Shown: one piece after another, positions 58,383-64,000 of the stretch
Numbering within the stretch: the first letter of the stretch is position 1
Layout of the letters: each line of letters begins with the position of its first letter
Assembly (NCBI GenBank): GCA_944390315.1
Contig: CALXPO010000025.1
Span: 73,286 to 137,285, forward strand
Direction: 5' to 3'
Source of the DNA: an uncultured Alphaproteobacteria bacterium
GTDB taxonomy: Bacteria > Pseudomonadota > Alphaproteobacteria > RF32 > CAG-239
Length of the DNA stretch: 64,000 nucleotides
The notes under the pieces: generated by a model
The model's input: the letters and a program-made list of their open reading frames with translations, nothing else
What the model was told of the DNA's origin: nothing
Database searches by the model: none
Translations under genes and position numbers: made by a program

Positions 58383-58796
58383 TTATTTATGGGCAAAGGT
58401 AAAATAGCGGTGCAGCAGATAAGTTAAAATTGTAATTCCTATGGTATAAAATCCTTGTGCAAGCAATTCATTTATTTTATATATATCAACCATGATAAAC
58501 ATTGCAAAATAGTTTAAGACCATCGTTGTTAAATAAACTCCCCACCCTTTACTATATTCTTTATACCAAATTCCGTTTGAGCGAAAAACATAGTAACGCA
58601 TTGTAAAAATAGACACGTTGACAGAAATAACATAGCCAATCCAAATGGCATTTTTATACGACAATTGTAACACAATTAGTAAGAAAGCAAAAACGCCATA
58701 GCCAAAAACGGTATTAAACCCGCCAACTAATAAAAATCTGAGCTTTTCAGGCAAAATAAACCAAATTTTTTCAATTTTCAGATACAAGTTTATCAT
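58383..58796 (-). CDS. GtrA-family small membrane protein (candidate polyprenyl-phosphate-sugar flippase)
   Basis: 137 aa with four TM helices. LRFLLVGGFNTVFGYGVFAFL is a GtrA-like N-terminus. Confidence 0.65.
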   Translation of the reverse strand: MINLYLKIEKIWFILPEKLRFLLVGGFNTVFGYGVFAFLLIVLQLSYKNAIWIGYVISVNVSIFTMRYYVFRSNGIWYKEYSKGWGVYLTTMVLNYFAMFIMVDIYKINELLAQGFYTIGITILTYLLHRYFTFAHK

Positions 58797-60429
58797 TTTC
58801 AGGCTCTATGTAGTAGATTTTGTACACTTTATTTTCAAATATCAGTTGGTAATCCGATTTTGGTTCAAAATCCGGAGAATTGATTTTATGTACGACAAAA
58901 TAATTACCGGCTTGGGGGCTTTTTTGAATGACTTTATAAGAATATTCATCCTCATCAACATGAAGATTTTTCAATGGGACTTCCGCTATCACCGAAATAT
59001 CGAGATTAGGAAAATTATATTTTAAGGCAGAAGCCCAACCGGTAACTTTCCACCATTTTCTCGGGGTGGGCTCATTAGAATACAGATATACGCTTACGGG
59101 ATTTTTTTGGGCTCGTGAAGCAATATATTCAGCAATTTGTCTTCTGTATATACCCTCTTCCCGATGATAAACGTGGTAATTGACGTACCCCGAATACAAA
59201 ACCGTCGGTATAAATAAAATAGCTAAAATCATCTTGTTTTGAACAAATGTAAAAATATAGGCTACGGCAAAAACAACCGTCAGATAGAGGTAATATGATT
59301 TATAATAATCCGGAATTACCACTATTTTCAAAACAAAGACAACCACCAGGCTCAAAATCGTTATTCCTAGCAAAGTTCCTTCTGTCAAAAAATATATCTT
59401 ATCGTATCGGCGTTGAAATATTTTGAACAACAATATCATCAAAGCACATGCATTTAATATTAACGCGAGCTTATTTATGCTTACGATTATCGACACATCG
59501 GCTCTATGGGTATCTAAATAAGGCGTCCCCAGAGTATTGTCCTGAAGGAGTAAGAAACAATTCATGAAAATGAATAAGCTCCAAAATAACAAATATTCAA
59601 TCGGCATTTTTGAAATTGTTTTGAAAGGAGAAAAAAACGAAGAAATATTTATCTGTCCCGAAAAAATGCGATATATGATAAAAAATCCCAACAATCCGGC
59701 ATAAAATAAAGTTACCGTTTCTTTCATATAAATAGCGATGTTGGCACAAATCAAAAACCATAACAAATTTCCAAATCGCCCTGTTTGATTAAATTTATTA
59801 AGTGAAATCAAGCTCAATATGACAAAAATCATGATAAGCTGTTCCGAAAAAATAGGATTATTAATGACAAACACCGCCGGTATAAAGTTAACTATTGCAA
59901 GAACAATCAAACGTCTTGTTATCGGTATAAACTCAAAAAATCGGTATAACAAATACAGCAAAAACAGTTGCTTCAAAATAATCCAACAATAGATAATTAT
60001 AAAATTATGGCTAACGGCATAAATGAAATTATTATCCATTCCGGCAAGCGGCGTAAAACGAATCGGATCAATAATGGATAATATACCGTATTTCATTGCG
60101 ACTTGAACATCAACCGCCATTAAATCAAAATTATTGAGTGTCGATGCTTCTTGAGATAAAGTGGCAAAACAGTATAGTCCTATAGATAGAAGTAACAAAC
60201 CAAAAGAAAACCATTTGGCTGCAGGGGCAGATGAAAAATCATATTTTTCTTCAGGTAAAAAAGAAACTTTTTCATATTTAAAAAAGAATTTGACTAATAA
60301 CCAGTTAAGAAAAAGAATTACTGAAACGACTAATGCATAATTTCCAAGATTGTTCCACGTCAGAAAAAACTCAAAATGATTATATATTGCAGATATAATA
60401 TCATCGTTAAATAACGGAAAGTTTCTCAT
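58771..60429 (-). CDS. Polytopic membrane glycosyltransferase-like protein, paralog A (candidate GT-C / ArnT-PMT-GtrC-like)
   Basis: 552 aa with about 11-13 TM helices and a C-terminal soluble domain of about 110 aa. Paralogous to the adjacent 529-aa protein (shared blocks IRFTPLAGMDNNFIYAVSHNFII versus MRFNPIAGIDHNIVYGISHNYIA). I cannot confirm the family from motifs alone. Confidence 0.5.
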   Translation of the reverse strand: MRNFPLFNDDIISAIYNHFEFFLTWNNLGNYALVVSVILFLNWLLVKFFFKYEKVSFLPEEKYDFSSAPAAKWFSFGLLLLSIGLYCFATLSQEASTLNNFDLMAVDVQVAMKYGILSIIDPIRFTPLAGMDNNFIYAVSHNFIIIYCWIILKQLFLLYLLYRFFEFIPITRRLIVLAIVNFIPAVFVINNPIFSEQLIMIFVILSLISLNKFNQTGRFGNLLWFLICANIAIYMKETVTLFYAGLLGFFIIYRIFSGQINISSFFSPFKTISKMPIEYLLFWSLFIFMNCFLLLQDNTLGTPYLDTHRADVSIIVSINKLALILNACALMILLFKIFQRRYDKIYFLTEGTLLGITILSLVVVFVLKIVVIPDYYKSYYLYLTVVFAVAYIFTFVQNKMILAILFIPTVLYSGYVNYHVYHREEGIYRRQIAEYIASRAQKNPVSVYLYSNEPTPRKWWKVTGWASALKYNFPNLDISVIAEVPLKNLHVDEDEYSYKVIQKSPQAGNYFVVHKINSPDFEPKSDYQLIFENKVYKIYYIEPENDKLVSEN

Positions 60430-60442
60430 GTCCAGCTCTCTT

Positions 60443-62035: not shown

Positions 62036-62848
62036 TTATTTCTTTGGCAAAAAGATATCCAACCGCAATTTGCGAAGCATTATCAACCAATAGGGATAAG
62101 GACGATAGTTTTTGATATTTAAAAATTTTCGAATATCTTGTTTTACCCGAGCATCAGCCTCTTTCATAGCCTGTTTCTTCTGAATTGAAATATTTTCATT
62201 ATGCAGTTGATATTCGAACAAAACTTTTTGAATATTTCTTATTTTGAGACCTTTGGCTAATACTTGTCTTAATAAATCATAATCTTCCGCAACGGCAAAT
62301 TTGGGATTGTAGCTGATACCATTCAACTCAAAATCTTTTTTTCTTATCATCATGGACGAATGCATGCAAGTGTTGCCGCGTAATGTTTCTTCCATAGTTA
62401 CGACTTCAGGTTGGCACCATACCCAACCCATGTTAATGATAAATTTTCTTATTTTTGATTGTAAGGTTGGAGCGGGCATATGATTAAACAATCTTCCCCA
62501 AGAACCAACTATGGTGACATCAGGATGTTCATCCATATATTTAACTTGTTCCTCTAAGCGCTCAGGCATACAAAGATTGTCGCTGTCTACCAAAGCCAGA
62601 TACTCACCTTGCGCCAACTCATTAAGTTTATTGTGACTGATTGGAATACCAAGATTTTTTCCATTAGAATAATATCTTATTCTTTTATCGCTATAAGTTT
62701 TAACAATATTTTCCGAATTATCCGTAGAGCCGTCGTTTAACAAAATCAGCTCAAAATCGTTATAAGATTGTTTTAAGACACTCTCTATACATGGACCTAA
62801 AAAAGCCTCAGAATTATAAAAAGGAATCAGAACCGAAACTTTTACCAT
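62036..62848 (-). CDS. Family 2 glycosyltransferase
   Basis: VSVLIPFYNSEAFLGPCIESVLKQSY.DFELILLNDGSTDNS...LVDSDN has GT2 DXD features. 270 aa with no TM segment. Confidence 0.75.
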   Translation of the reverse strand: MVKVSVLIPFYNSEAFLGPCIESVLKQSYNDFELILLNDGSTDNSENIVKTYSDKRIRYYSNGKNLGIPISHNKLNELAQGEYLALVDSDNLCMPERLEEQVKYMDEHPDVTIVGSWGRLFNHMPAPTLQSKIRKFIINMGWVWCQPEVVTMEETLRGNTCMHSSMMIRKKDFELNGISYNPKFAVAEDYDLLRQVLAKGLKIRNIQKVLFEYQLHNENISIQKKQAMKEADARVKQDIRKFLNIKNYRPYPYWLIMLRKLRLDIFLPKK

Positions 62849-63289
62849 TTTATACCTCTTGAAATAACATATATGTCATACAATTAACATAACGAATTAT
62901 ATTTGTCGAGATTTCTGATATGTATACACATAACCTTATTTTATTTAGCTTCTATATAATAGATTTTGTATATTCTATTTTCATAGACTTTGCGATAAAT
63001 CGATGCCGGTTGGCGGAGCAAAACGTATTTGATAAAAAATAGGGATATTCCCATTATACATATTTTGTGTAGCATTATCCGACATAAGGTATTCTTGTTG
63101 AATAAAGGTTCGTATCTCATAAGTTGCCTATTATATTTTCAGATATATTAGCAGATTTCAAAAAGTGACTAATCTTGCACATTCTTTCAATAGTTATTGA
63201 ATATTCCTTACATATGTTTATTATCATAATTATATATGATTGTTGACCTTGGTGTTCGACATGCACACAAACATTTGAAGGAAAATATT

Positions 63290-64000
63290 ATGAAAAGATT
63301 GCTGATTGTTGTTCCCTGTTATAACGAAGAAGAAGTTTTGCCCGATACCATAAAAAAATTGAAAAATTTGCTAAAACGTATGATAAAGCAGCAACTGATT
63401 AATGACAGCAGTCAAATATGCTTTGTCGATGATGGAAGTATTGATAATACTTGGACAATCATAGAGAAAGAATGTCATTCTTCCAAGCAGATAGAAGGTA
63501 TAAAATTATCTCGGAATTTTGGACATCAAAGTGCTATTTTGGCAGGTATGCTAGACAACAATGCCGATTGGTATGTTACAATTGATGCTGATTTACAAGA
63601 TAATCCGGAATGTATCATTGAAATGATAAAAAAAGCTCAAAATGGTTGTGAAATCGTTTATGGCGTGAGAAAAGAAAGGACGTCAGATAGTTGGTTCAAA
63701 CGCGTTACGGCGCAAATGTTCTATAAACTAATGGCTCTCTTAGGAGTTAATATCATCTATAATCATGCCGATTTCAGATTGATGAGCAAACGTGTCGTCA
63801 ATGAACTTAAAAAATTTCCGGAACGCAACCTTTTCTTACGTGCCGTTGTTCCTTTGATTGGTTTCAAATCTGATAAAGTTTTTTATGATCGCACACCAAG
63901 GCTTGCCGGAACAACAAAATATCCTTTGAAGAAAATGCTGGCTTTTGCATGGAATGGTATTTCCAGTTTTTCCATTGTTCCGCTTCGGATGGTAACTTGT
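63290..64000 (+). CDS. GtrB/ArnC/DPM1-like polyprenyl-phosphate glycosyltransferase (GT2), N-terminal 237 codons. The 3' end lies beyond the window.
   Basis: Not in the ORF track because it runs off the edge. ATG at 63290 after gaaggaaaat. LIVVPCYNEEEVL...FVDDGSIDNT...IKLSRNFGHQSAIL.G...ADWYVTIDADLQD matches bactoprenol glucosyltransferases. Divergent from the GT2 gene at 62036-62848. Confidence 0.7.
   Translation, partial: MKRLLIVVPCYNEEEVLPDTIKKLKNLLKRMIKQQLINDSSQICFVDDGSIDNTWTIIEKECHSSKQIEGIKLSRNFGHQSAILAGMLDNNADWYVTIDADLQDNPECIIEMIKKAQNGCEIVYGVRKERTSDSWFKRVTAQMFYKLMALLGVNIIYNHADFRLMSKRVVNELKKFPERNLFLRAVVPLIGFKSDKVFYDRTPRLAGTTKYPLKKMLAFAWNGISSFSIVPLRMVTC

Follow-up and report, generated by a model that had tools for sequence, protein, structure and literature searches.

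Whether the glycosyltransferase genes at the end of the 64,000-nucleotide stretch of DNA analysed here (the window) form a Gtr-type periplasmic glycosylation module, and whether such a module was imported or inherited, is the question raised by this locus. In the prototype Gtr system, a GtrB-type undecaprenyl-phosphate-sugar synthase is combined with GtrA, a four-helix putative flippase, and with a polytopic periplasmic GT-C transferase (PMC11127046). A first-pass annotation had proposed the same logic here and had added that the locus might be horizontally acquired or phase-variable. The gene content, the paralogy of two membrane proteins and the three-part logic (polyprenyl-phosphate-sugar synthase, flippase and periplasmic GT-C transferase) all held up on analysis. 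The host is an uncultured gut alphaproteobacterium, and the five-gene cluster is inherited and is no recent import.

All five open reading frames of the first-pass annotation were recovered, with the same coordinates and strands. Four lie on the minus strand, the first gene of the operon encoding a soluble Leloir-type GT2 (GT-A) glycosyltransferase of 270 aa (62036..62848). This is followed by genes for two GT-C fold membrane glycosyltransferases, paralog A of 529 aa (P529; 60443..62032) and paralog B of 552 aa (P552; 58771..60429), and for a GtrA-family four-helix membrane protein of 137 aa, a putative flippase (58383..58796). The fifth gene, encoding a GtrB-type polyprenyl-phosphate glycosyltransferase (GT2), is transcribed divergently on the plus strand (63290..64000) and runs off the window end. 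The tight spacing described for the minus-strand genes was also evident: 3 nt separate the GT2 stop from the P529 start, 13 nt separate P529 from P552, and the GtrA start lies over the P552 end in a 26-nt overlap (58771-58796).

The complete GtrB-type protein was read from an identical contig (L001, 5844-6785, minus strand), on which it comprises 313 aa starting from MKRLL. The divergent ORF matched Pfam Glycos_transf_2 at 2.9e-29, and the top NCBIfam models were PgfS (3.7e-47) and ArnC (7.9e-31), both under their equivalog cut-offs. Searching PDB sequences with phmmer gave matches to Synechocystis GtrB (5EKP) at 1.3e-64, spanning residues 5-308 of 313, and to ArnC at 6e-42; because the match to solved GtrB is full-length, the protein was assigned to the GtrB type. 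VDDGS and DADLQD motifs are readable in the sequence, and two C-terminal membrane helices are seen as hydrophobic stretches in the L001 translation. Such an enzyme would work at the inner membrane, on its cytoplasmic face, loading undecaprenyl phosphate with a single sugar from a nucleotide-sugar donor. The GtrA protein matched PF04138 (GtrA_DPMS_TM) at 1.6e-16 and 61 bits (cut-off 26.1) over profile positions 1-117 of 117, and it occupies an unchanged position in related loci at 59-63% identity. This four-helix protein may flip the lipid-linked sugar into the periplasmic leaflet.

The two large membrane proteins aligned end to end with 35% identity (E 3e-98), as expected of the paralogs that they had been proposed to be. 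Both AlphaFold models, which are of moderate confidence (pLDDT 72-77) and poor in the loop that carries D98 (<50 at residues 101-123), contain ~12 membrane helices followed by an alpha/beta domain of ~110 aa at the C terminus. Structure comparison of these predicted models revealed the multi-helix membrane module of the GT-C (class A) fold in both paralogs. O-antigen ligases and polymerases (WaaL/Wzy) gave neither a sequence nor a fold match, and non-glycosyltransferase families were likewise absent, in agreement with the initial reading of both proteins as membrane transferases.

Pfam and NCBIfam scans of the paralogs gave nothing above threshold. PMT_2 (RgtA/B/C/D-like; the GT39/GT83 type of ArnT, Rgt and PMT) scored 19.1 bits in P529, under the gathering threshold of 26.1, did not match P552, and gave any match at all in just 2 of 14 members of the GT-C family. 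None of 10 distant relatives contained a Pfam family, Pfam YfhO (E up to 0.1-1) had no match in the family, and searching PDB sequences with a family profile gave none at E up to 10. Since the family falls below all Pfam and NCBIfam thresholds and the PDB sequence profile search was empty, fold similarity is the sole link to glycosyltransferases. One member carries the UniProt label "RgtA/B/C/D-like domain-containing protein". The family comprises ~126 clusters at 50% identity among 1.84 billion proteins, none of which is covered by Pfam. A second, unannotated 547-aa membrane protein in locus L013 was considered as a member and rejected (hhalign probability 0.7%).

Inspection of 60 family members revealed that D98, R120, R169, E192, K232, E233 and E274 are 96-100% conserved, and all are present in both paralogs. 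D98 itself (98%) lies within loop 91-137, a Lys/Arg-poor segment (0.05 per residue) with a low-confidence model. The alternating Lys+Arg density of the loops suggests that this loop and the C-terminal domain are probably periplasmic. The topology so predicted, with 12 helices and the N terminus out, differs from the usual GT-C arrangement, which is odd-numbered with the N terminus in. For catalysis, the paralogs would use a conserved acidic side chain of their first periplasmic loop, D98 in the 529-aa protein, and each may transfer the sugar to an envelope acceptor, the pair serving two different sites or two different acceptors. Just three residues are diagnostic between the two paralog clades (Y97F beside D98, T195I and W375Y); these are too few, and therefore no specificity was deduced.

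The 270-aa soluble GT2 matched Pfam Glycos_transf_2 at 6.6e-35. Its closest solved relatives are the C-terminal domain of chondroitin synthase K4CP (4.5e-25), SpsA and GalT1; GtrB matched at only 9e-5, over the nucleotide-binding part. The protein is 57-80% identical across all related loci, and its gene also adjoins GT-C in two distant loci, L012 and L014. Canonical Gtr systems are without a soluble GT2, and its conserved presence here is an addition to that scheme. Its most likely task, put forward as conjecture, would be to assemble or lengthen the acceptor (or the lipid-linked donor) at the cytoplasmic side; its gene is translationally coupled to those of the GT-C proteins.

That the soluble GT2 is always kept beside the GT-C genes would also be consistent with a periplasmic glycan assembly line, in which, from a GT2 primer, the two GT-C proteins prime and extend a short polymer using lipid-linked monosaccharides. 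Such a process would resemble that of AftA, AftB and Emb on mycobacterial arabinan and would differ from decoration of a pre-made glycan. AftB, AftA, AftD, EmbA and PimE are among the structural matches of the paralogs, and accessory methyltransferase, sulfatase-family transferase and acyltransferase genes in relatives suggest a more elaborate product. However, the structural similarity to polymerising GT-C enzymes is no stronger than that to single-addition ones, one GT-C suffices in the more distant relatives (L012, L014), and the loci show no linkage to genes for export, chain length or anchoring. We consider polymer assembly improbable.

The 441-nt region between the divergent genes (62849-63289) contains fragments of a third GT-C gene, as detected by tblastn of family members. 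One covers family residues 84-132 (43% identity over 49 aa, 38.5 bits) and the other the C terminus (80% over 20 aa, 37.7 bits). They are collinear, share the strand of the operon and are separated by a frame change; the first is a piece of the first periplasmic loop and the second the C-terminal ~20 codons. Across 300 dinucleotide-shuffled sequences, top scores were 22.6 ± 2.1 bits on average and peaked at 32, and none came up to 37.7. The fragments indicate that 62950..63127 (minus strand) is a decayed third GT-C gene.

GtrB-type, GT2, two GT-C and GtrA genes were found in 8 of 8 related genome loci. The neighbouring genes are housekeeping in every locus, and the order common to the relatives is Lnb-dnaG-rpoD-(module)-recG-mfd-DUF192-recJ. 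Each related genome has one member from each of the two GT-C clades, and the GT-C duplication therefore predates the split of the lineages. Distant family members are adjoined by a ~318-aa GT2 in L012, L013, L014, L016 and L017 and by GtrA in L013, L014 and L016. The repeated linkage of the GT-C family to GtrB-type and GtrA genes supports the three-part logic. Shared gene order, taken with normal GC3, points to vertical, chromosomal inheritance.

The locus had been described as markedly AT-rich. Total GC is indeed low (0.324, compared with 0.378 for the rest of the window), as would suit a Gtr cassette of the serotype-converting kind, acquired recently, perhaps phase-variable and lying between repeats, but GC3 is ordinary at 0.31-0.33, within the window range of 0.347 ± 0.032. 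The low total GC is therefore ascribed to membrane-protein amino-acid content. A cassette would also account for the repeat arrays at both ends (58083-58345 and, just beyond the GtrB-type gene, L001 5391-5770), for the defence-like genes just past the window end (an AriA/OLD-type ATPase and a Cas4-like nuclease), and for turnover in the form of gene order that differs among relatives and of the GT-C pseudogene remnant. It is at odds with the unchanged housekeeping surroundings of the module in 8 related genomes and with a GT-C duplication older than those lineages. Furthermore, no plasmid was found to carry the GT-C family (0 matches), and the lone "phage" record was a misfiled chromosomal fragment, 99.5% identical to a chromosomal contig including recG. 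The prophage or mobile-element carriage typical of classical gtr clusters was thus not observed, the locus having instead conserved housekeeping synteny, normal GC3 and no plasmid match.

Signatures of phase variation were similarly absent. The locus contains no homopolymers of at least 8 nt and no tandem repeats of this kind, and the promoter region has neither GATC or GANTC sites nor convincing flanking inverted repeats of the inverton type. Contigs from three samples were 100% identical across the locus, with no structural differences. Normal GC3, conserved synteny, an ancient duplication and the lack of these signatures speak against the proposal of acquisition or phase variation, and the cassette, already largely refuted, is given hardly any credence.

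The flanking repeat pair on which that proposal drew is real: a ~135-nt element occurs twice in tandem, its second copy degenerate (both within 58083..58345, plus strand). It is not specific to the locus, as the element is dispersed and occurs elsewhere. Its 18-nt core has 5 matches against 0.02 expected, and further copies lie at 13975-14128 of the window (minus strand) and, past the window end, at 4592-4850 and 5391-5770 of L001. The pair starts right behind the DUF192 terminator (58062-58086), the sole feature for which a promoter and terminator scan was informative (38 promoter-like sites against 32 expected). The element follows terminators elsewhere too, which again argues against a cassette. 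Its predicted fold has a z value of -3.2. In relatives, recG-mfd stand at the position of the repeat; the dispersed element sits at synteny breakpoints, and the pair is the locus boundary and no working part of the module. Repeats are present, yet the locus is conserved among relatives with normal composition, a combination that the first-pass annotation had itself named as weakening its case.

We favour, as fairly probable, the reading of the locus as a Gtr-type module for periplasmic glycosylation that is chromosomal and vertically inherited. All three components are shared with GtrA/GtrB/GtrC of Shigella flexneri and Salmonella temperate phages, which act in O-antigen glucosylation, the homology having been tested for GtrA and GtrB. 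The phage genes are prophage-borne and form a gtrABC operon, whereas the GtrB gene here is divergently transcribed and the module includes two ancient GT-C paralogs and a third remnant, from a GT-C family without a Pfam model. In another member of the Alphaproteobacteria, Rhizobium leguminosarum, a single GtrB-type polyprenyl-phosphate-sugar synthase likewise supplies several ArnT-like GT-C paralogs, a likeness by description; the PMT_2 match here stayed below threshold. In that species, as Brown et al. in 2012 reportedly found, RgtA/RgtB/RgtC/RgtD with RgtE bring about galacturonosylation of LPS core and lipid A. Unlike Rgt, the module here includes GtrA and a soluble GT2. It differs from ArnC/ArnT (with ArnE/F; lipid A aminoarabinose) in the absence of formyltransferase, deformylase and aminotransferase genes and in a GtrA-type flippase in place of ArnE/F, and ArnT was not the top structural match.

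If ArnT and the rhizobial Rgt enzymes are taken as a guide, LPS (its core, its O-chain or lipid A) is the most likely acceptor. LPS is a candidate because the window encodes an EptA-type phosphoethanolamine transferase, confirming an eptA-like gene noted earlier; no acceptor-identifying features were found in the 64-kb window. Alternatively, though this is regarded as rather unlikely, the GT-C pair might act in protein O-glycosylation like PMT or PgfM/YfhO enzymes, with Ser/Thr residues of proteins in the periplasm or outer membrane receiving the lipid-linked sugar in place of LPS. The Streptococcus mutans Pgf operon (PgfS, PgfM1, PgfE, PgfM2) similarly joins a GtrB-type GT-A enzyme to two GT-C membrane proteins, and PgfS is the top NCBIfam model here. 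However, PgfM1 and PgfM2 belong to the YfhO family, for which there was no match, and Pgf has an epimerase, is without GtrA, and serves protein acceptors in a Gram-positive organism. Teichoic-acid glycosylation by CsbB/GtcA/YfhO in Bacillus and Listeria follows a three-component logic with a GtrA-family protein, GtcA (PMC7389260); this logic resembles that of the present locus, but the GT-C family (YfhO), the teichoic-acid acceptor and the Gram-positive setting are different.

The module is a conserved core-genome part of an uncultured gut Alphaproteobacteria lineage and probably shapes a surface glycan met by phages and the host immune system. Its GT-C family lies outside current family libraries, and an activity assay could define a new glycosyltransferase family, for which ORF12, which defined GT136, is a precedent (PMC11127046). 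These enzymes could also give new transferase specificity for glycoengineering. More tentatively, a GT-C family distinct at the CAZy-family level and an obligatorily coupled soluble GT2 might constitute a five-component pathway for two-part envelope decoration in uncultured gut Alphaproteobacteria. If so, selection that phages or host immunity exert on the surface structure would underlie the way in which the GT-C genes diverge fast, are reshuffled and undergo birth-and-death. For annotation, an operon of membrane proteins is not marked as horizontally acquired by low GC and flanking repeats alone. At the other end of the window, the glycosyltransferase operon claimed at 1-1520 found weak support. 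Among the relatives, accessory genes encode a methyltransferase in L008, L011, L012, L013 and L014, a sulfatase-family transferase in L004 and L011, and an acyltransferase in L016.

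Four tightly packed genes on the minus strand encode, in order of transcription, a 270-aa GT2 (62036-62848), two large membrane proteins of 529 aa (P529; 60443-62032) and 552 aa (P552; 58771-60429), and a GtrA-like protein of 137 aa (58383-58796). The operon-like packing, with gaps of 3 and 13 nt and an overlap of 26 nt, is faced by a divergent GT2 gene that starts at 63290 on the plus strand and is cut by the window end. P529 and P552 align end to end (35% identity; E = 3e-98). The ORF positions, spacing and paralogy given in the first-pass annotation were confirmed, and its core reading of a Gtr-like three-component locus also stands.

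The GtrA-like protein scored above the Pfam threshold (61 bits versus a cut-off of 26.1). The divergent gene, read at full length from an identical contig (L001) that reaches past the window end, encodes 313 aa, and matches to the solved Synechocystis GtrB (5EKP; E = 1.3e-64, residues 5-308) and to solved ArnC (E = 6e-42) identify the product as a polyprenyl-phosphate glycosyltransferase of the GtrB/ArnC type. The 270-aa GT2 is of a different type: its closest solved relatives are ordinary Leloir GT-A enzymes whose acceptors are glycans, namely the K4CP C-terminal domain (4.5e-25), SpsA and GalT1. Its similarity to GtrB (E = 9e-5) was confined to the generic nucleotide-binding part.

No Pfam or NCBIfam model matched P529 or P552 at threshold. 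P529 gave only a sub-threshold PMT_2 match (19.1 versus 26.1 bits) and P552 gave none; this weak match was present in 2 of 14 family members scanned and is echoed by the UniProt name of one member, [quoted passage not shown] A Pfam scan of ten of the most distant members found no family, and a family profile searched against PDB sequences gave no match at E up to 10. Family libraries do not describe the GT-C family at the core of the module. The family is small: a 5.8-billion-protein collection yields 22 clusters for it at 90% identity, and 1.84 billion proteins yield 126 representatives at 50% identity, of which 71 fall below 1e-30.

The predicted structures of P529 (pLDDT 72.4, pTM 0.76) and P552 (pLDDT 76.7, pTM 0.81) both comprise ∼12 membrane helices followed by an alpha/beta domain at the C-terminus. 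The top Foldseek matches, with modest scores, were PglB and ArnT, in agreement with a GT-C fold; neither WaaL nor Wzy, matches to which had been named beforehand as weakening the reading of an acquired Gtr-like module, was seen among the fold matches. Seven charged residues found in both paralogs (D98, R120, R169, E192, K232, E233 and E274) are 96-100% conserved in a 60-member alignment. From the alternation of Lys+Arg density between successive loops, we infer that loop 91-137, which bears D98, and the C-terminal domain lie on the periplasmic side, a placement of the kind that a GT-C active site requires; the arrangement is provisional because the D98 loop is poorly modelled.

In all eight related genome loci, a pair of GT-C genes is accompanied by a GtrB-type gene, GtrA and the 270-aa GT2. 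More distant family members show this linkage too, in other gene orders: clpX-clpP, GtrB-type, methyltransferase / GT2, GT-C, GtrA / tig in L014; GtrB-type / GT-C, GtrA in L013; and acyltransferase, GT-C / GtrA, GtrB-type in L016. GT2 genes adjoin GT-C in L012 and L017. This association strongly supports a Gtr-like three-component mechanism, the prototype of which has been described (PMC11127046).

In such a mechanism, the GtrB-type enzyme would load a sugar onto undecaprenyl phosphate, GtrA would flip the lipid-linked sugar, and the two GT-C paralogs, acting in the periplasm, would pass it to two sites or to two acceptors. The soluble GT2 would act on the cytoplasmic side, building or extending either the acceptor or the lipid-linked donor. 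We consider this whole scheme the probable one, and its three-component core more probable still. LPS would be the favoured acceptor because of the analogy with ArnT and rhizobial Rgt enzymes and because the window holds an EptA-type gene (3566-5185; EptA_B_N, 1.1e-35; Sulfatase, 1.6e-57), annotated as eptA-like at first pass and confirmed here. Protein O-glycosylation of a PMT- or Pgf-like kind is an unlikely alternative use of these components, and Aft/Emb-like assembly of a periplasmic polymer is rather more improbable.

Several relatives carry accessory genes that are absent here: a MetW-like methyltransferase beside the GtrB-type gene (L008 5085-5903, L011 7283-8104, L012 3229-4065, L013 5532-6263 and L014 5194-6033), a sulfatase-family (phospho-transferase-like) gene for a 466-aa protein, placed after GtrA (L004 13999-15399 and L011 13638-15038), and a 323-aa protein without a Pfam family (L008 11500-12471). 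The alphaproteobacterial module is also present on a 5.4-kb contig of a "Bacilli bacterium" MAG (L010, JAZTXB010000110.1). This contig is probably mis-binned, since its accessory gene for the 323-aa protein shares 94% identity with that of the alphaproteobacterial MAG locus L008.

The Gtr-like module belongs to the core genome; it carries a soluble GT2 in addition, and its GT-C paralogs are dynamic. The closest module-bearing genomes are MAGs of gut or faecal origin that go under the names "Azospirillum sp. 51_20", "uncultured Azospirillum sp." and "uncultured Alphaproteobacteria bacterium". In relatives, the module lies between Lnb-dnaG-rpoD and recG-mfd-DUF192-recJ; here DUF192-recJ is still adjacent, but recG-mfd and the rpoD side have been lost. 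A neighbour-joining tree resolved two paralog clades, A and B, with one member of each per genome and the single-copy form of L012 outside both; the duplication therefore predates these lineages. Between-genome ortholog identity was 39-54% for GT-C, 57-80% for GT2, GtrB and GtrA, and 71% for RecJ, and gene order varies, GT-C standing upstream of GT2 in L006, L007 and L009. The AT-richness reported at first pass holds for total GC (0.324 versus 0.378) but not for GC3, which at 0.31-0.33 lies inside the window distribution (0.347 ± 0.032). Given this normal GC3, the shared housekeeping synteny, the old duplication and the lack of any family relative encoded on PLSDB plasmids, the proposal of horizontal acquisition was not sustained. 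Phage carriage was likewise rejected: the only "phage" record (MT836630.1, "UNVERIFIED: Bacteriophage sp.", human faeces, 9.3 kb) shares 99.5% identity with L004, a chromosomal contig from the "Azospirillum sp. 51_20" MAG. It holds recG, a sulfatase-family gene and the whole module, and so resembles bacterial DNA that was wrongly deposited as viral.

The repeats said to flank the locus are real but do not border an imported island. A dispersed ∼135-nt repeat, often tandem, occurs at 58083-58345 (plus strand), at 13975-14128 (minus strand) and in L001 at 4592-4850 and 5391-5770. It carries CCCCGRGTTTACTCGGGG hairpins (predicted fold, z = -3.2), had no Rfam match at gathering thresholds and is absent from the loci of related genomes. 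Copies start directly after intrinsic terminators, including that at 13975-14128, and sit exactly where synteny with relatives breaks; the element is scattered in this genome and marks breakpoints in synteny. Repeat arrays and, beyond the window, defence-like genes have replaced the lost neighbours. The defence-like pair (L001 975-4339), past the GtrB-type gene and where relatives have dnaG-rpoD, consists of a 515-aa DUF2779/Cas4-like nuclease followed by an ATPase of 599-606 aa, whose best matches are the PARIS AriA (1.1e-54) and OLD/GajA models.

Within the 441-nt divergent region between 62848 and 63290, a decayed third GT-C gene was found on the operon strand (62950-63127, minus). One fragment aligns to 49 aa of the first periplasmic loop at 43% identity (38.5 bits); the other, which lies after a frame change, aligns to the C-terminal 20 aa at 80% identity (37.7 bits). 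In 300 dinucleotide shuffles the highest score was 32 bits. Between the two parts lie a large internal deletion and the frame change. The remnant resembles clade-B paralogs and fits the order GtrB / GT-C, GT2, GT-C, GtrA seen in L006, L007 and L009; the set of GT-C genes thus turns over in evolutionary time. In L009, the clade-A gene (2407-4009) is split between two frames, 2407-3474 and 3476-4009, which points to a frameshift pseudogene or else to a faulty assembly. The suggested phase variation found no support: homopolymers of 8 nt or more are absent from the locus, the promoter region lacks GATC and GANTC sites as well as convincing flanking inverted repeats, and three independent contigs are identical across this region. 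Metagenome contigs from three samples share the DNA of the window at 100% identity over 9 kb.

Elsewhere in the window, there is little basis for the "glycosyltransferase operon" annotated at 1-1520: the minus-strand ORF 1-864, cut by the window edge, gave only a sub-threshold Glyco_trans_1_2 match (E = 2e-4), and the minus-strand ORF 834-1520 had no Pfam match. A two-piece (permuted) alphaproteobacterial tmRNA gene, which assigns the organism to that class, lies at 18878-19224 on the minus strand (Rfam alpha_tmRNA, 211 bits).
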